DNA of 51,769 bases, taken from assembly GCA_026417535.1 (NCBI GenBank), contig JAOADB010000002.1, forward strand, positions 1 to 51,769. Direction: 5' to 3'. Of the stretch, positions 965-11,845 are shown one piece after another (positions within the stretch are counted from its first letter, which is position 1; each line of letters begins with the position of its first letter). Both the position numbers and the translations under genes were made by a program. This DNA comes from Caldilineales bacterium (lineage in GTDB: Bacteria > Chloroflexota > Anaerolineae > J102). The notes under the pieces are model-generated. The model saw nothing but the letters and a program-made list of their open reading frames with translations. It was not told the DNA's origin and made no database searches.

Positions 965-3487
965 CTACTCGGTCACGATGTTGACCAGACGCTGCGGTAC
1001 GACGATGACCTTGCGCACGGCGCGGCCGTTCAGCCACTTCTGCACCTGCGGACTGGCCAGCGCCGCCGCTTGCACGGCCTGTTCATCGGCATCGGCCGCC
1101 ACGGTGATCCGGTCGCGCACCTTGCCGTTGACCTGGATGGGCAGCTCGATCATCTCCGCCTTCACCAGCTCCGGATCGGCCTGGGGCCACGCCTGGGTGT
1201 GGATGCTGTAGGGCTTGCCCAGTTGCGCCCACAGCTCCTCGGCGATGTGTGGGGTGGCCGGCGCCAGCAACAACAGCAGGGTGGTGATGGCCTCGTCCCA
1301 GGCGGCGGTACCGTAAACAGGCGTGTTTTTGGCCTGGGCCAGGGTGTTGCTGAAGGCCATCAGAGCCGCGAGCATCGTGTTGAACTTGAAATGCTCGTAG
1401 TCCTCGGTAACCTTGGCGATGGTGCGATGGGTGGCGCGGCGCAACTCGGTGATGGCCTGGGCGTCGGCCTCGCCGGTTGGAGTCTGTTCGGGCGGGTCGA
1501 GTACCAGCGACCACACCCGGTTCAGAAAGCGTCGCACGCCCTCGATGGCGCGCGGGTTCCAGGGGCCGCCTTCCTCCCACGGGCCGATGAACATCAGGAA
1601 GGCCCGCACGGTATCGGCCCCGTATTGGGCCACGTAATCGTCAGGATTGACCACGTTCCCGCGCGATTTCGACATTTTCTCGCCGTCTTCACCCAGGATC
1701 ATACCCTGGTTGAAGAGGCGCAACATGGGTTCATCGAAGTCCACCAGCCCGGCGTCCCGCATGGCCTTCGTGAAGAAACGGGTGTAGAGCAGGTGCATGG
1801 TGGCGTGCTCGATCCCGCCCGTGTACTGGTCCACCGGCAGCCAGATACGACCGATGGCCGGGTCCCAGGGTGTGTCGTCTGGGCTGAGGGGCTGCCCCTC
1901 CTTCCAGTAGGGCGACAGGTAAGCGTACTGATACCACGAGGAACACAGGAAGGTGTCCATCGTGTCGGTCTCGCGCTCGGCATCGCCGCCGCAGCGCGGG
2001 CATGTGACGTAACGGAAGCCCTCGTGGAATTTCAGGGGGCTTTCGCCCGTGGGCCGGAACTCGGCGTCTTCGGGCAGGAGGACGGGCAGGTCGGAATAGG
2101 GCACGGGCACGATGCCGCAATCGGGGCAGTAGATGATGGGGATGGGCGCGCCCCACATGCGCTGCCGGCTGATCAGCCAGTCGCGCAGGCGGTAGTTGAC
2201 CTTGCGTTCGCCGCGCGCGTGTTCCACCAGCCAATCGGCCGTGGCGTCGAAGCTAGCGGGCCAAGCCAAACCGTCGAAAGGCCCCGAATTGACCATGACG
2301 CCGCCTTCCTTGACCGTATAGGCCGCGGCCAGGTTGCGGGCGGCCTCATCGTCCCAGGCGCGTGGGTCGCCAACCCGATACACCTCCTCGGGCACGATGA
2401 CGATGGGCGTGGGCAGGCCGTACTTGCGAGCGAAGTCGAAGTCACGCTCGTCGTGGGCCGGCACACCCATGATGGCCCCGGTACCGTAGCTCATCAGCAC
2501 GTAATCGGCAATCCAGATGGGCACCGGCTGGCCGTTGACCGGGTTGATGGCGTAGGCGCCGGTGAACACGCCGCTCTTCTCGCCGGCCTCGGTCTGACGC
2601 ACCAGCTCGCTCTTGCGGGCGGCCTCGGCCACGTAGGCCTCGACGACCGCGCGCTGTTCCGGCGTGGTGATCTCGGCCACCAGGGGATGTTCCGGTGCCA
2701 GCACGGCAAAGCTCATGCCGAAGGTGGTGTCGGGCCGGGTGGTGAAAACGCGGAAGCTGAGGTCGGGCCGTCCCTGGATGGTCATGGCGAATTCGACGCC
2801 TTCGCTGCGACCGATCCAGTTCCGCTGCATGACCTTGACCCGCTCCGGCCATTCGATACGGTCCAGCCCTTCCAGCAGCTCATCGGCATAGCGGGTGATG
2901 CGGAACTTCCACTGTTCCAAGTTGCGGATCTCGACCGGGGTGCCGCAGCGCTCGCAGTGGCGGTCTTCGCCCCACACCTGTTCCCGGGCCAGGGAGGTGT
3001 TGCACTGCGGGCACCAATCCACCGGCGCCTTTTCCCGATAGGCCAGGCCCATATCGTAGAACTTACGGAAGAACCATTGGGTCCACTGGTAGTAGCCCGG
3101 CAAACAGGTGATGGCTTCATGCTCCCAGTCGAACATCGTGCCCATCTGTCTGAGCTGCCGGCGCATGCGGTTGATGTTGTCCATCGTCCAGCGATACGGG
3201 TGCACGCCGTGCTTGATGGCGGCGTTCTCCGCCGGCAGGCCAAAGGCATCGAAGCCGATGGGGAACCAGACGTTGTAGCCCTGCATCCGCTTGTAGCGGG
3301 CCGCGGCGTCTGAGGGCGCCATGGCATACCAGTGACCGGTGTGCAGGTCACCGCTGGGATAGGGAAGCATGGTCAGGAAGTACCATTTGGGCCTGTCCGA
3401 GGCGTCGTCGCGGCGGTACAGACCGGTTTCTTCCCAGATTTGTTGCCATTTCGGCTCGATGATGGCGGGGTTATAGCGTTCGGACAT
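965..3487 (-). CDS. leuS: leucyl-tRNA synthetase
   Basis: 840 aa. N-terminus MSERYNPAIIEPKWQQIWEE, HIGH-region PYPSGDLHTGH, KMSKS motif (KMSKSRGN), and CP1/Zn-type CPQC..CERC motifs. Confidence 0.97.
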   Translation of the reverse strand: MSERYNPAIIEPKWQQIWEETGLYRRDDASDRPKWYFLTMLPYPSGDLHTGHWYAMAPSDAAARYKRMQGYNVWFPIGFDAFGLPAENAAIKHGVHPYRWTMDNINRMRRQLRQMGTMFDWEHEAITCLPGYYQWTQWFFRKFYDMGLAYREKAPVDWCPQCNTSLAREQVWGEDRHCERCGTPVEIRNLEQWKFRITRYADELLEGLDRIEWPERVKVMQRNWIGRSEGVEFAMTIQGRPDLSFRVFTTRPDTTFGMSFAVLAPEHPLVAEITTPEQRAVVEAYVAEAARKSELVRQTEAGEKSGVFTGAYAINPVNGQPVPIWIADYVLMSYGTGAIMGVPAHDERDFDFARKYGLPTPIVIVPEEVYRVGDPRAWDDEAARNLAAAYTVKEGGVMVNSGPFDGLAWPASFDATADWLVEHARGERKVNYRLRDWLISRQRMWGAPIPIIYCPDCGIVPVPYSDLPVLLPEDAEFRPTGESPLKFHEGFRYVTCPRCGGDAERETDTMDTFLCSSWYQYAYLSPYWKEGQPLSPDDTPWDPAIGRIWLPVDQYTGGIEHATMHLLYTRFFTKAMRDAGLVDFDEPMLRLFNQGMILGEDGEKMSKSRGNVVNPDDYVAQYGADTVRAFLMFIGPWEEGGPWNPRAIEGVRRFLNRVWSLVLDPPEQTPTGEADAQAITELRRATHRTIAKVTEDYEHFKFNTMLAALMAFSNTLAQAKNTPVYGTAAWDEAITTLLLLLAPATPHIAEELWAQLGKPYSIHTQAWPQADPELVKAEMIELPIQVNGKVRDRITVAADADEQAVQAAALASPQVQKWLNGRAVRKVIVVPQRLVNIVTE

Positions 3488-3535: not shown

Positions 3536-4480
3536 TTACGAGGCGAGCGGCCACTCGCCTTCTTCGTACACGTAGTCCAGCCAGCCGTGGGGGTCCATCT
3601 CGCCGGCCGTGATGGCGAAGAACCGTTCCTGGATGGCTTTGGTGATGGGGCCGCGAGTGCCGCTGCCCACCGGGATGCGGTCCACCGAGCGGATGGGGGT
3701 GATCTCGGCGGCAGTGCCGGTGAAGAACAACTCGTCGGCCAGATAGAGCATCTCGCGGGTCAGGTAGGCGTATTGCACTTCGTAGCCCAGGTCACGGGCC
3801 AGGGTGATGGCGCAATCGCGGGTGATGCCGGCCAGGATGGAGGCCGACAGGGGCGGGGTGTAGATGACGCCGTCGCGGATCAAAAACAGGTTCTCGCCCG
3901 ACCCCTCGGACACGTAGCCGTGGATGTCCAGGCTGATGCCCTCGGTGTAACCCAGGTCGTGGGCTTCCATGGCCACGTACTGGCTGTTGACGTACTGGCC
4001 GCCGATCTTGCCCAGAGGGGTGAGGGAACCGGGTGGCATCCGTCGCCACGAGCTGACCATGACATCCACCCCCTGTTCGATGGCCTCGGGCCCCAGATAA
4101 CGGCCCCAAGGCACGGTGCCGATGACGACCTCGACCGGACACTTGCGGCCGTCCACGCCCAGGGTCTCGTACCCCCGGAACACGATAGGCCGGATGTAGC
4201 AGGCATCCTGTTTGTTCGCCCGGATCGAGGCTTTGCAGGCGGCGATCAGCTCGTCCACGCTGTAGGAGAGGGGGATGCGCATGATTTTGCAGGAATCATG
4301 CAAACGCCGCATGTGTTCGCGGCCGCGGAAGATAGCCGGCCCCCGCGGGGTGCTGTAGGCGCGAATGCCTTCAAAGGCGCTGGAGCCGTAATGCAAAGCA
4401 TGGGTGAAGACATGGACTTTGGCCTCATCCCAGGGGATGAGCCGGCCGTTCATCCATATCCAATCGGCGCGCATGGGCAT
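3536..4480 (-). CDS. ilvE: branched-chain amino acid aminotransferase
   Basis: WMNGRLIPWDEAKVHVFTHALHYGSSAFEGIRAY and ...TAAEITPIRSVD are class IV aminotransferase signatures. Start moved to ATG 4480 (GAGG 9 nt upstream); the track start at 4516 is TTG. Confidence 0.92.
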   Translation of the reverse strand: MPMRADWIWMNGRLIPWDEAKVHVFTHALHYGSSAFEGIRAYSTPRGPAIFRGREHMRRLHDSCKIMRIPLSYSVDELIAACKASIRANKQDACYIRPIVFRGYETLGVDGRKCPVEVVIGTVPWGRYLGPEAIEQGVDVMVSSWRRMPPGSLTPLGKIGGQYVNSQYVAMEAHDLGYTEGISLDIHGYVSEGSGENLFLIRDGVIYTPPLSASILAGITRDCAITLARDLGYEVQYAYLTREMLYLADELFFTGTAAEITPIRSVDRIPVGSGTRGPITKAIQERFFAITAGEMDPHGWLDYVYEEGEWPLAS

Positions 4481-4642
4481 AGGAGATACCTCGCGATAGG
4501 GTGAAAAGCGGAGCAAAAACGGAAAGACGCGTCATTGCTATTGTAATGGGAACCACACGTAATGTTCCAATCGTGCTTTTCGTTTGGAACACCGTGCTCA
4601 AAAAGGCCAGTCGTTGGCCCGCCGTCGGCAGCCATCGCCAAC

Positions 4643-4744
4643 AAAAAATCCCTTCATCCACACAGGGACGAAGGGACGCTCCGCGGTACCACCCTGATTG
4701 TCGGAAACGGTGGGGGCGTGACCGGCACGCCCCCACGAAAACGA
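4643..4744 (-). promoter_or_regulatory. T-box leader, 3' module: Stem III, T-box antiterminator sequence, intrinsic terminator
   Basis: Minus-strand RNA contains GUGGGGGCGUG-CCGGU-CACGCCCCCAC (4736-4710), AAUCAGGGUGGUACCGCGG (4699-4681) and UCCCUUC-N14-GAAGGGA + U6 (4676-4643). The terminator 5' arm overlaps the antiterminator 3' arm. Confidence 0.85.
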
Positions 4745-4820
4745 TGGTGGAGCAGAAGGGACTCGAACCCATGACCCCCACAATGCCATTGTGGTGCTCT
4801 CCCAGCTGAGCTACTGCCCC
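4745..4820 (-). tRNA. tRNA-Ala (anticodon GGC), CCA encoded, embedded within the T-box leader
   Basis: GGGGCAG-TA-GCTC-AGCTGGGA-GAGC-A-CCACA-ATGGCAT-TGTGG-GGGTC-ATGGG-TTCGAGT-CCCTT-CTGCTCC-A-CCA. It has the G3:U70 Ala identity pair and one U50:U64 mismatch in the T stem. Confidence 0.88.
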
Positions 4821-5008
4821 ACGCTGTGGTTTCCGACCACTCGACGCTGTAACGGGCTGACCCGTCGCCGCCTACTGCCGGGGGTACCGGTTTCGTCGGC
4901 GCCGCTACCAGGCGAGTTCGTCCTCACGCAGACCCGTGGGCTGCATCACCGGGCTCACACCGTCCCCGGTTCGCTGGCGGGTTGGCCTACTACTCCTGGT
5001 CGTTGCGC
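4821..5008 (-). promoter_or_regulatory. T-box leader, 5' module: Stem I with specifier CUC (Leu), Stem II region, F-box
   Basis: Minus-strand RNA contains GCGC-AACGA-CCAGG-AGUAGUA..., the AG-bulge-like AGCGAA, and distal hairpin CCGGG-ACGGUGUGAG-CCCGG. It continues ...GACGAA-CUC-G-CCUGG-UAGC-GGCGC (CUC = + strand gag 4914-4916) and has F-box CCGUUA (4850-4855). Confidence 0.8.
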
Positions 5009-5046
5009 TTGGGTTCTCGGTTGTTCGCCCGGGGGAGCCAGGCCAG

Positions 5047-5119
5047 TGGAGCTGAGGGGACTCGAACCCCTGACTTCTACAGTGCGATTGTAGCGCTCTC
5101 CCAGCTGAGCTACAGCCCC
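5047..5119 (-). tRNA. tRNA-Ala (anticodon CGC), no encoded CCA
   Basis: GGGGCTG-TA-GCTC-AGCTGGGA-GAGC-G-CTACA-ATCGCAC-TGTAG-AAGTC-AGGGG-TTCGAGT-CCCCT-CAGCTCC-A. G3:U70 pair present and all stems are perfect. Confidence 0.95.
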
Positions 5120-5131
5120 GGAGTTACTTTT

Positions 5132-5160
5132 AGTCTATCCGGGTACAGAGGATTTGTCAA
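5132..5160 (-). promoter_or_regulatory. sigma-70-type promoter driving tRNA-Ala(CGC), the T-box and tRNA-Ala(GGC)
   Basis: Minus strand reads TTGACA-17 nt-TAGACT, with the -10 element 12 nt upstream of the tRNA 5' end. Confidence 0.65.
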
Positions 5161-5338
5161 GTCCGTCAACGGCAACGGCGCGGGGTAAGGCCGACCCGCC
5201 TTTGTTGGCCCGCAGTCGGCAGGCTTATAATCTGCCCTTGTTGCCCCCTCTGTGGGCTTTCCCGCAAACCGTGTCCCTCGCCAGATGCCACAGTCTCCGG
5301 CCGGGATACCCGCTTTCCCTTCTCATGGCCTCGCAACC

Positions 5339-6232
5339 ATGCCCATCGGCGAACTGGCGGCCCTGACCACGTCCCTGTGTTGGGCGTTCACCTCGACCTT
5401 TTTCACCCTGGCCGGTCGTCTGGTCGGTTCGGTGACCGTCAATCGCATCCGCTTGCTCTTAGCCGTCGTTTTTCTGCTCCTGGCCCATGCCCTGTTCCGT
5501 CTGCCCTTGCCCCTTCACGCCGAACGCGAACGCTGGTTCTGGCTGGGGCTTTCCGGTATCCTGGGGCTGGCCTTGGGCGATGCCTTTCTCTTTCAGGCCT
5601 TCCTCTGGATCGGGCCCCGGCTGGCCATGCTCTTGCTCAGCCTGGCCCCGGTGTTGGCCACCGTCATCGCCTGGGTCTTTTTGGATGAAAAGCTGGCGCT
5701 GCTCCAGCTCATCGGCATCGGCGTCACGCTGACAGGTGTGGCGGCGGTGGTGGCCGAGCGTACCGCCCCCGACGCCACGACCATCAGCGGCCGCCGGCTT
5801 TTGGGCCTGCTGAGCGGTCTGGCTGCTGCCCTCGGTCAGGCCCTGGGCCTGATCACGGCCAAGCGGGGCCTGGCCGGCGATTTTCCCGCCCTCTCCGGTA
5901 CCCTCATGCGTATGGTCGTGGCCGCCGCGGTGATGTGGGGGGCGGCCATCCTGTTGGGACAGGCTCGTGCGACCCTACGCCGGGTGCGCGAACGACCGCA
6001 GGCCCTACGCTACCTCCTGGGCGGTGCCTTTTTCGGCCCTTTTCTCGGCGTCACCCTCTCGCTGGTAGCCGTCCAGGCCACGGCCGTCGGCATTGCCAGC
6101 ACGCTGACGGCCCTGCCGCCGGTGTTCCTTTTGCCCATCGGCCGCCTGGTCTTCAAGGAACGGATCGGACCCCTCGCCATCATCGGCACCCTGGTGGCCG
6201 TAGCGGGCATTGCCTTGCTGGCCTTGGGCTGA
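5339..6232 (+). CDS. EamA/DMT-family transporter
   Basis: About ten hydrophobic segments. MPIGELAALTTSLCWAFTSTFFTLAGRLVG... and a second EamA repeat LLSGLAAALGQALGLITAKRGL.... Start moved to the third in-frame ATG, where the first TM helix begins. Confidence 0.8.
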   Translation: MPIGELAALTTSLCWAFTSTFFTLAGRLVGSVTVNRIRLLLAVVFLLLAHALFRLPLPLHAERERWFWLGLSGILGLALGDAFLFQAFLWIGPRLAMLLLSLAPVLATVIAWVFLDEKLALLQLIGIGVTLTGVAAVVAERTAPDATTISGRRLLGLLSGLAAALGQALGLITAKRGLAGDFPALSGTLMRMVVAAAVMWGAAILLGQARATLRRVRERPQALRYLLGGAFFGPFLGVTLSLVAVQATAVGIASTLTALPPVFLLPIGRLVFKERIGPLAIIGTLVAVAGIALLALG

Positions 6233-10816: not shown

Positions 10817-11137
10817 TTAGGGGATTTGTGCAAGAAGCGCGGAAAGGATAGCAAAATCTAAGAGAACATCAAATGCTAGAGTCAAAAACAATACGATCAG
10901 CACAAAGCCAATAATTGCTCGAAAACATCCTGTTGTACCGGAAATGACGACATCAAAAGGAGATGGACCTTCCTTCAAACTTGGTGCTGTAGCAGTAAAC
11001 ATCTTACCGTAGTCTTTTCTTCCACTTACAAGTATGCGCCGACAATAGCCGGCTATGCCTAAAAAGATAAGAAACAAAATAAACCGTCCTGAGATCTGAA
11101 ACGTTTGAGCGCTGAACTGGCGAAGGGCCTCCTCCAT
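10817..11137 (-). CDS. hypothetical two-TM membrane protein (ORFan) in a low-GC segment
   Basis: ATG 11137 is preceded by GGAGGTGGGAG. Product MEEALRQFSAQTFQISGRFILFLIFLGIAGY...FRAIIGFVLIVLFLTLAF. The sequence is visibly AT-richer than its neighbours. The track start at 11227 is TTG. Confidence 0.5.
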   Translation of the reverse strand: MEEALRQFSAQTFQISGRFILFLIFLGIAGYCRRILVSGRKDYGKMFTATAPSLKEGPSPFDVVISGTTGCFRAIIGFVLIVLFLTLAFDVLLDFAILSALLAQIP

Positions 11138-11220
11138 AGGCTCCCACCTCCGTACCAAACGAAGTGAGCTGCCGGGCAACGGGACCGCGGTGTCAGGGTC
11201 GGCAGATGGGTGGGTGGAAT

Positions 11221-11248
11221 TTGACAATTAGAACAAATGTTCTATCAT
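11221..11248 (+). promoter_or_regulatory. promoter TTGACA-16-TATCAT with an embedded perfect palindrome TAGAACAAATGTTCTA (GAAC-N4-GTTC, LexA/Cheo-type SOS box)
   Basis: -35 at 11221-11226, palindrome at 11229-11244, -10 at 11243-11248; about 80 nt upstream of the GTG start at 11330. Confidence 0.6.
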
Positions 11249-11329
11249 ATTCAAGACGATAGACGATGGGGATCGTCCATCGTCTCCTCTCTACACCGAC
11301 CGTCGCGACATGAATCGGAGGATAAAACC

Positions 11330-11845
11330 GTGTTTCAGCAACCTGTACCACAACGCTCCGGGCCCGACGGCCTGTGGGCCTGGTTCGATACGCTTCTCGG
11401 TCTTGCCAACTGGGTGGATCGCCTGGAAGGGTGGATCATGAGCCTGCGCTATGGCGATTACGCCTCGGCGCGGCAGCGCGGCCTCCTGGCGCTGATGGGC
11501 GAGATGGGCAGCAGCCTCCTAGAAACGAACACCTACCATTTTGCCATGCGGCGTGATGGTCACTACTCGCTCAACGAGGTCGAGGCGCTCCTTAAGCGCT
11601 ATGGCATTCCCATCTTCGGACGCACCCACGATGCCCACTGCCTGTACTTTCATGTGAAGAAGCGGCAGGCCCGTTGGGCCGAGTACATCCTGCTAAGGGC
11701 CGGAGTCGAACTCGTCAATCCGGTCTTTGATCCGCGCAATCCGGGCTATGCAGCCCATCATACACCCGGTACGATGCCGACGCCGTGGAGCGAGGCCAAG
11801 ACGGACAACACCTCTTTCTGGCAACGTGTGTTTGGTGACTGGTAA
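11330..11845 (+). CDS. hypothetical protein (171 aa), no recognisable family
   Basis: GTG start with GGAGGA 7 nt upstream. The composition is non-repetitive and protein-like (..NTYHFAMRRDGHYSLNEVEALLKRYGIPIFGRTHDAHCLYFHVKKRQARWAEYILLRAGV..). Confidence 0.6.
   Translation: MFQQPVPQRSGPDGLWAWFDTLLGLANWVDRLEGWIMSLRYGDYASARQRGLLALMGEMGSSLLETNTYHFAMRRDGHYSLNEVEALLKRYGIPIFGRTHDAHCLYFHVKKRQARWAEYILLRAGVELVNPVFDPRNPGYAAHHTPGTMPTPWSEAKTDNTSFWQRVFGDW

Follow-up and report, generated by a model that had tools for sequence, protein, structure and literature searches.

The window analysed here is a 51,769-nt stretch of contig JAOADB010000002.1 from a Caldilineales bacterium (Chloroflexota; NCBI GenBank assembly GCA_026417535.1). 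Near its start lies a minus-strand transcription unit that ends with ilvE and leuS, and whose leader combines a leucine-specific T-box riboswitch with a gene for tRNA-Ala(GGC). An earlier note, made from the sequence alone, had proposed that this tRNA gene is intact and sits inside the T-box leader upstream of ilvE-leuS. The proposal held: both elements scored significantly, a single promoter serves them, the arrangement is not an assembly chimera and it is conserved. Overall, we consider it probable that the unit consists of one promoter, tRNA-Ala(CGC), a Leu T-box carrying a functional tRNA-Ala(GGC) in the apical loop of its Stem III, a terminator, ilvE and leuS, and that the switch operates co-transcriptionally, with the tRNA being excised later.

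According to a promoter scan, the unit starts from a sigma-70-type promoter, TTGACA-17-TAGACT (5132-5160), the sole promoter-like site within 4400-5400. The same promoter occurs at the same position in the Chloroflexota loci L007-L012. The first gene, called by ARAGORN and Rfam, is that of a tRNA-Ala(CGC) without an encoded CCA (5046-5119), located 33 nt before the T-box. At the other end of the leader, ilvE (3536-4480) encodes a branched-chain amino acid transaminase of 314 aa (NCBIfam NF005146, 425.7 bits with a cut-off of 279; TIGR01122, 401.6 bits) and leuS (965-3487) encodes a leucine–tRNA ligase of 840 aa (TIGR00396, 972 bits). We also considered IlvE as a D-alanine aminotransferase, a possible link to tRNA-Ala, and rejected this assignment: the branched-chain equivalog model scored well over its cut-off and the D-amino-acid transaminase models fell far under theirs.

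The Rfam T-box model, RF00230, aligned over its full length (model positions 1-219) to 5012-4661, across the tRNA gene, with a score of 55.6 bits (E = 2e-11; 641 nt searched). The 5′ domain (4838-5012; model 1 to ~170) comprises Stem I, with its K-turn region, specifier loop, AG bulge and distal loop, followed by Stem II, the Stem IIA/B–F-box region and an RRRNG motif. Within Stem I, the AGUA motif, the AG bulge, a GGUG distal loop and GAA-CUC-G aligned to model positions 1-103. The specifier codon is CUC (Leu; 4914-4916, in the context GAA-CUC-G at 4919-4913), matching both ilvE and leuS, and the F-box CCGUUA lies at 4855-4850. The discriminator reads GAGUG-GUCGGAAAC...GUUUCCGAC-AA, with GAGUG at 4842-4838. 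It corresponds to 5′-RRRNG-Stem III-AA-3′, given as the T-box discriminator signature in PMC7778990 and PMC11404447. The T-box sequence and antiterminator (4661-4699; model 183-219) include AAUCAGGGUGGUACCGCGG at 4699-4681, with the UGGN bulge, here UGGU, at 4691-4688. A terminator scan detected an intrinsic terminator at 4642-4677, composed of a 12-bp stem (4677-4648) and U6, whose 5′ arm overlaps the 3′ strand of the antiterminator, such that the two helices are mutually exclusive. By every structural criterion tested, the Rfam gathering score excepted, the leader is a T-box on the strength of its sequence, with predicted switch activity. The earlier note had located the specifier, F-box, UGGU and overlapping terminator correctly, as read in the sequence and, for the specifier, also in the RF00230 alignment. 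Its coordinates held, and so did almost all of its particulars. It had further pointed out that the triplet after CUC, GCC, is the cognate codon of anticodon GGC. This is a coincidence: the triplet is GCC, GUC or AUC among relatives. A second, cognate specifier was accordingly rejected, the triplet being GUC or AUC in most of them.

The tRNA gene had been placed in the linker between two halves of the T-box. In the RF00230 alignment it is instead an apical insertion in Stem III: the covariance model sets a 124-nt insertion in the loop of this helix. Stem III comprises 9 bp formed by GUCGGAAAC (4837-4829) and GUUUCCGAC (4708-4700), the latter followed by the conserved AA (4699-4698), and closes a 120-nt loop. 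The loop holds the tRNA and, on its 3′ side, an extra GC-rich hairpin of 11 bp, GUGGGGGCGUG-CCGGU-CACGCCCCCAC (4736-4710), which the earlier note had taken for Stem III itself. Folding 4695-4850 by minimum free energy reproduced this arrangement of three parts (z-score −3.7). The extra hairpin was rejected as a terminator: it was not called by the terminator scan and does not have a proper U-tract. In related Caldilineales (L008-L012) it is preserved as a hairpin of different sequence (GAGGCCGGUCG...CGACCGGCCUC).

Comparative data corroborate the Stem III pairing. Among 26 distinct sequences, 94% of cells were paired, versus 25-41% when the partner columns were slid, and six of eight pairs had changes on both sides. 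The covariation score was 0.68 versus 0.19 ± 0.03 in shuffles. For this analysis, the helix was anchored on its conserved base and the 5′ strand was placed by best complementarity within 90 nt, a placement that the RRRNG motif, an independent marker, matches except in two loci. Full-length Rfam alignments that span the tRNA were also obtained for L012 (69.6 bits), L024 (67.2 bits) and L050 (50.4 bits). In L024, from a second phylum, the Stem III loop again takes up the tRNA in the Rfam alignment, as an insertion of 87 nt. PMC11404447 states that only the termini of Stem III contribute to function, and describes Stem III loops of 4-10 nt; in the literature it is the base of the helix, with the flanking purines, that counts. 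The nested loops range from 82 to ~220 nt and contain a whole tRNA gene and sometimes additional hairpins. In the group of 'ANGP1' and soil genomes (L045, L046, L049, L050; metagenome contigs L075, L077, L089, L100, L111, L113, L122), one or two long hairpins are added after the tRNA and 59-138 nt separate CCA from the T-box sequence. The first added hairpin starts with UGCACCACUCG, an ACCA-like motif repeated directly after the tRNA CCA, and L029, L032 and L059 read CCACCA-ACCA after the tRNA.

We then considered whether the insert is a working tRNA. As the earlier note had expected, tRNA predictors recognize it: ARAGORN called tRNA-Ala(ggc) at 4745-4820 on the minus strand, and the Rfam tRNA model (RF00005) scored 59.3 bits on 4820-4745, with a gathering score of 29. 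The 76-nt gene has G3:U70, A73 and an encoded CCA. Thirty-three nested copies, representing 16 distinct sequences, were compared. Anticodon GGC, U33, G3:U70, A73, G18G19 and the T-loop are invariant, and compensatory changes occur in pairs 4:69 and 6:67, in the T stem and in the anticodon stem, whose variants include CCACA/UGUGG, CCCGC/GCGGG and CCUCU/AGAGG. The retention of G3:U70, A73 and GGC while the stems covary points to a working tRNA, as far as sequence can tell. Alanyl-tRNA synthetase (AlaRS) does not read the anticodon, so that the invariant GGC points to selection through decoding. In ilvE, leuS and thrS together, GCC accounts for 120 of 164 Ala codons (73%) and for 6.8% of all codons. 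Judged by this usage, tRNA-Ala(GGC), the predicted reader of the main Ala codon here, is a high-demand tRNA.

The same data bear on the view that the cloverleaf serves the riboswitch as a tRNA-like module for structure or processing, such as an RNase P entry site or a scaffold comparable to mascRNA on MALAT1, and not as a translational tRNA. Its position in a non-coding leader would suit such a role, as would the U50:U64 mismatch in the T stem of the window copy, which the earlier note had spotted and the Rfam alignment bears out. The 50:64 pair is restored in L011 and L012, however, and a module of this kind would account poorly for the invariant identity and decoding features in covarying stems, for an anticodon kept constant despite an anticodon-blind AlaRS, and for the dominance of GCC among Ala codons. 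Moreover, L016, L036 and L038 carry un-nested orthologues that have this anticodon arm and are ordinary tRNA genes. Finally, five nested tRNA sequence types occurred 42 times in the metagenomes: 41 times nested, once beside a T-box 5′ half (L094) and never free-standing or in any other context; a sixth type was always free-standing. In this comparison of loci and contigs, such contexts would fit the nested gene being the only tRNA-Ala(GGC) copy. We therefore regard a non-translational module as very unlikely.

The encoded CCA had been listed as an oddity, and the window does contain only one tRNA with CCA among three. Within the Chloroflexota the nested genes stand apart: C74C75 is encoded in 7/7 nested loci and the full CCA in 5/7, whereas among 15 non-nested tRNAs, including the adjacent tRNA-Ala(CGC), CCA is found in 0/15 and CC in 2/15. 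Beyond this comparison the feature is not specific, as CCA is also encoded by a homologous tRNA type that stands free in metagenomes, with a single exception among ~30 contigs. Encoded CCA was thus rejected as a general hallmark of nesting.

The IlvE protein was located on contigs of three Logan run assemblies and two NCBI metagenome-assembled genomes (MAGs), five assemblies that are independent of one another. In all five, the 601-nt leader (window 4600-5200) is collinear, with 97-99% identity and the tRNA in the same place, which excludes the chimeric assembly against which the earlier note had advised checking. A genome scan for IlvE relatives, with one genome per species, yielded 53 loci. 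In 32 of these, tRNA-Ala(GGC) has a T-box 5′ region before it and the UGGNACCRCG T-box sequence after it, with ilvE further downstream. GAACUC precedes the tRNA in 30 of these 32 other nested loci; L051 has GAACCUC and L030 is without the 5′ domain. Wherever a nested genome locus reaches far enough, leuS follows ilvE; L059 ends within ilvE. The hosts are Caldilineales and other Chloroflexota (L007-L012), Candidatus Sysuimicrobiota (Fervidifonticultor, Calidihabitans), Armatimonadota-labelled MAGs, including Ca. Nitrosymbiomonas, and 'ANGP1' and unclassified soil MAGs. A metagenome scan with a tRNA core pattern yielded 72 contigs. In 41 of these, the tRNA is followed by the nested T-box sequence, and all of the 41 but one short contig also have ilvE, plus leuS where the contig reaches it. 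Comparison of orthologous ilvE-leuS leaders, as the earlier note had suggested, thus revealed nesting conserved across phyla, in 32 further genomes and 41 metagenome contigs.

Such conservation is difficult to reconcile with the view that assembly created a chimera here, or that this is a dead T-box which a tRNA insertion has split. That view could draw on a score below the Rfam gathering threshold and on the metagenome-assembled origin of all sources. It is opposed by the five collinear assemblies, by the recurrence of the architecture in the genomes and contigs above, by the covariation of Stem III, and by the conservation of the T-box sequence, specifier and terminator. We consider it extremely improbable.

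Two further observations were made in the loci compared. In L094, a metagenome contig of 1537 nt, a T-box 5′ half (CUC, GAGAG-GAUAGCGC) and a nested-type tRNA are followed after CCA by sequence unrelated to the T-box 3′ half; the contig represents either a rearranged locus or a misassembly. In L008, a related Chloroflexota MAG, a tmRNA gene (153-569; tag AKNTGNAFNFGFARSNALAIAA) lies ~2.8 kb upstream of the tRNA/T-box locus.

To define the transcription unit, promoters were examined in the 31 loci where one was found. Each has exactly one strong sigma-70-type promoter, always upstream of Stem I or of tRNA-Ala(CGC). It matches 11/12 consensus positions in the non-Chloroflexota loci, where it usually reads TTGACG-18-TATAAT, and 10/12 in the window and other Caldilineales (TTGACA-17-TAGACT or TAAACT). 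No internal promoter was found in these loci, either on the Stem I side of the tRNA or on its T-box side. In particular, an independent promoter between the tRNA and Stem III, which in the earlier note would have marked the two halves as unrelated transcripts, was looked for in the window and the other loci and was not found. With the sole promoter upstream, the nested tRNA is transcribed from the riboswitch promoter. In the terminator scan, the T-box terminator was the sole terminator-like site after the two tRNA genes.

The pairing of a tRNA gene with a T-box recurs in the window. A Thr T-box with specifier ACC (12269-12042, minus strand; RF00230, 106 bits) starts 15 nt after tRNA-Val(GAC) (12358-12285), and the sole promoter for both is TTGGCA-18-TATAAT (12399-12370). 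Both T-boxes of the window thus appear to be driven by tRNA-gene promoters. In other Chloroflexota (L036, L038 and, in part, L054), tRNA(CGC)-tRNA(GGC) lies directly before an uninterrupted T-box-ilvE. The Thr T-box terminator is separated from thrS (10799-8979) by ~1.2 kb, a gap that contains an open reading frame (ORF) of 202 aa on the opposite strand (11237-11845), a minus-strand ORF of 136 aa without an NCBIfam match (10817-11227) and a terminator-like hairpin (11922-11898). This unusual distance may reflect an insertion.

Variant loci give some indication of how the nesting evolved. In L030 (3753-3960), Stems I and II have been lost, and the −10 element of a TTGACG-18-TATAAT promoter ends 22 nt before tRNA-Ala(GGC). 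This locus retains the tRNA, a Stem III remnant, the T-box 3′ half and a terminator-like hairpin upstream of ilvE-leuS. In two Anaerolineae MAGs (L014, L016), tRNA-Ala(GGC) lies ~190 nt upstream of ilvE, together in L016 with tRNA-Ala(CGC). No T-box was detected in L014 or L016 at E ≤ 0.01, indicating that the tRNA-Ala(GGC)-ilvE linkage persists without the riboswitch. The D arm and anticodon arm of the window's nested tRNA are those of un-nested tRNA-Ala(GGC) from Chloroflexota, L016 for example, and not those of the Sysuimicrobiota type. Likewise, the T-box 3′ domain of the window is 73-76% identical to those of un-nested Chloroflexota T-boxes and 54-61% identical to those of nested non-Chloroflexota ones; these are pairwise identities, for which the 5′ domain was uninformative and the extraction of L054 unreliable. 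The tRNA and the T-box 3′ domain therefore cluster by phylum and not by nesting state, which implies that the nesting state changed at least once while the parts themselves were kept. By this sequence comparison, nesting may have been gained or lost repeatedly at this one loop. Repeated gain or loss, if true, would argue for a selective advantage.

We also considered whether the nested tRNA acts in cis, its own ACCA pairing with UGGU or its elbow docking on Stem I, so that the switch would also report tRNA-Ala or its processing. ACCA does lie 20-140 nt upstream of UGGU, and the variable last base of UGGN, U, matches A73 of tRNA-Ala. It matches A73 of tRNA-Leu likewise. The specifier is CUC throughout, and the next triplet, GCC, GUC or AUC, provides no pairing with anticodon GGC. 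In addition, the nested tRNAs of L009 and L010 end in ACC-U, not ACCA, and the ACCA is held at the far end of a Stem III of 7-11 bp, distant from the bulge. The T-box pocket also rejects 3′-extended ends. Sensing of the nested tRNA in cis is, in our judgement, highly improbable.

In the reading that we prefer, the leader would operate as a T-box for tRNA-Leu in trans. Stem I would read tRNA-Leu through the CUC specifier, and the discriminator, composed of RRRNG-Stem III-AA and the UGGU bulge, would test its charging, so that the terminator would form or not as the polymerase reaches the antiterminator/terminator region. The nested tRNA would fold autonomously. Because a tRNA folds by itself and brings its two ends side by side, it would form a closed insertion at the tip of Stem III, and the nesting would be tolerated. 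After the decision, RNase P and 3′ processing would cut the tRNA out of both terminated and read-through transcripts. Since its gene precedes the terminator, each initiation would yield one pre-tRNA-Ala(GGC), whether transcription terminates or reads through. The T-box terminator would accordingly serve as the conditional end of a strong tRNA-type transcription unit, and ilvE-leuS expression would equal the activity of the tRNA promoter multiplied by leucine-dependent read-through. A tRNA-type promoter gated by Leu-tRNA charging would let leucyl-tRNA synthetase rise and fall with tRNA synthesis, and would provide feedback in addition. What the data show directly are the anatomy of the leader, its conservation and covariation, the single promoter and the sequence hallmarks of a functional tRNA; we infer that the riboswitch is active and that folding, decision and processing follow in this order. 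The explanation we favour is that a riboswitch loop tolerant of inserted structure accommodates the gene of a high-demand tRNA. With regard to the three functional scenarios of the earlier note, co-transcriptional sensing and terminated leaders as a source of tRNA are the best supported and are mutually compatible; the third, in which processing is part of the switch, may still apply.

Several observations weigh against this reading. The window T-box falls short of the Rfam gathering score (55.6 vs 93 bits), as do all of these T-boxes (44-70 bits). Un-nested T-boxes of related Chloroflexota (L036, L038, L054) score equally low, at 44-68 bits, and the shortfall is therefore not attributable to the insertion alone. 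The wide retention of the nesting is unexplained by a purely neutral passenger. Finally, the gap between the 5′ strand of Stem III and tRNA position +1 is just 0-4 nt in most non-Chloroflexota loci, and PMC7897497 describes an engineered riboswitch in which RNase P is hindered by a paired 5′ leader. Together, this spacing and this hindrance suggest that a harmless later excision may be too simple.

The latter observations are also those on which processing would be part of the control. Stem III would then act as the 5′ leader and 3′ trailer of the pre-tRNA, and either T-box folding would gate RNase P or cleavage would remodel the ilvE-leuS mRNA: by removing the Stem I domain, RNase P would leave a structured tRNA/antiterminator 5′ end and change the stability of the message. 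RNase Z, for its part, would be kept from cutting the leader by the encoded CC(A) as long as the decision is pending. The short spacing in most non-Chloroflexota loci and the block of RNase P by sequestration of the 5′ leader in the synthetic construct (PMC7897497) favour this possibility, as does the enrichment of CC and CCA in the nested tRNAs of Chloroflexota over the non-nested ones. The window and the other Caldilineales, by contrast, have an unpaired 5′ leader of 6-10 nt before the tRNA, which makes gating unneeded there. Precedents would be B. subtilis thrS, whose expression Condon and colleagues are said to have found in 1996 to be raised by leader cleavage, and the role of CCA as an RNase Z anti-determinant, reportedly described by Pellegrini and colleagues in 2003. 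Outside the Chloroflexota, however, CCA is not nesting-specific, being encoded by the free-standing metagenome tRNA type too, and Stem III is not among the switching helices. On balance, control through processing seems unlikely to us. We are similarly doubtful that the nesting is itself functional, with Stem III doubling as a pre-tRNA leader-trailer helix that couples riboswitch folding to tRNA-Ala maturation, and with excision splitting the riboswitch and resetting or stabilizing the ilvE-leuS message.

Riboswitches are treated as self-contained cis-acting folds. Here, a separate and essential-looking tRNA gene, serving the commonest Ala codon, lies inside one, and maturation of the nested tRNA must physically cut the sensor from the expression platform. 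The locus thus constitutes a natural test system for the timing of a co-transcriptional decision relative to RNA processing, for the tolerance of the T-box discriminator to insertions, and for gating of tRNA maturation by a natural riboswitch helix. In these little-studied phyla, aminoacyl-tRNA synthetase operons (leuS and probably thrS) appear to be driven by tRNA promoters and gated by T-boxes, which would tie the synthetase to tRNA supply. There is also an annotation gap: as the nested leaders lie below the Rfam gathering score, standard pipelines report a lone tRNA and overlook the riboswitch.

The earlier note knew of no described leader that contains a tRNA gene, and we found no prior description of a tRNA gene inside a T-box in the full-text literature that could be searched. 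The T-box and the tRNA-Ala are themselves of known kinds; the novelty lies in the architecture, which sets a functional tRNA gene within a riboswitch fold. The nested leaders share with canonical transcriptional T-boxes (RF00230; B. subtilis tyrS, glyQS and ilv-leu operon) the same Stem I, Stem II, IIA/B–F-box region and RRRNG-Stem III-AA, the same AANNNGGGUGGUACCGCG T-box sequence, exclusive antiterminator and terminator helices, and downstream synthetase or amino-acid biosynthesis genes that match the specifier (Leu). They differ in their scores below the Rfam gathering threshold, in their hosts, which are Chloroflexota, Ca. Sysuimicrobiota and Armatimonadota and not Bacillota, and in the loop of Stem III, which spans 82 to ~220 nt with a tRNA gene as opposed to the 4-10 nt given in PMC11404447.

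Transcription units that join tRNA genes to mRNA provide a second comparison. In the E. coli thrU-tyrU-glyT-thrT-tufB operon, tRNA genes are co-transcribed upstream of an mRNA. Like this operon, the tRNA-Val–Thr T-box unit and L036 and L038, the nested locus shares a strong tRNA promoter with a protein operon and its tRNA is predicted to be released by processing. In those units, however, the tRNAs lie outside the regulatory RNA, whereas here the tRNA interrupts its structure and excision would sever the sensor domain from the expression platform. Dual-specificity T-boxes also involve two tRNAs per T-box, as in the tandem or two-codon NT-box of C. acetobutylicum that Saad and colleagues are reported to have described in 2013. 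There, both tRNAs are trans ligands; here, the tRNA-Ala is encoded by the leader and does not match the specifier. The synthetic RNase P riboswitch of Ender et al. (2021; PMC7897497) is similar in that a riboswitch helix is also the pre-tRNA 5′ leader and can control the access of RNase P. That engineered device responds to a small molecule, and what it controls is tRNA maturation. The nested T-box, by contrast, is natural, is predicted to sense another tRNA and has transcription termination as the output known for its kind, with coupling to processing being hypothetical.

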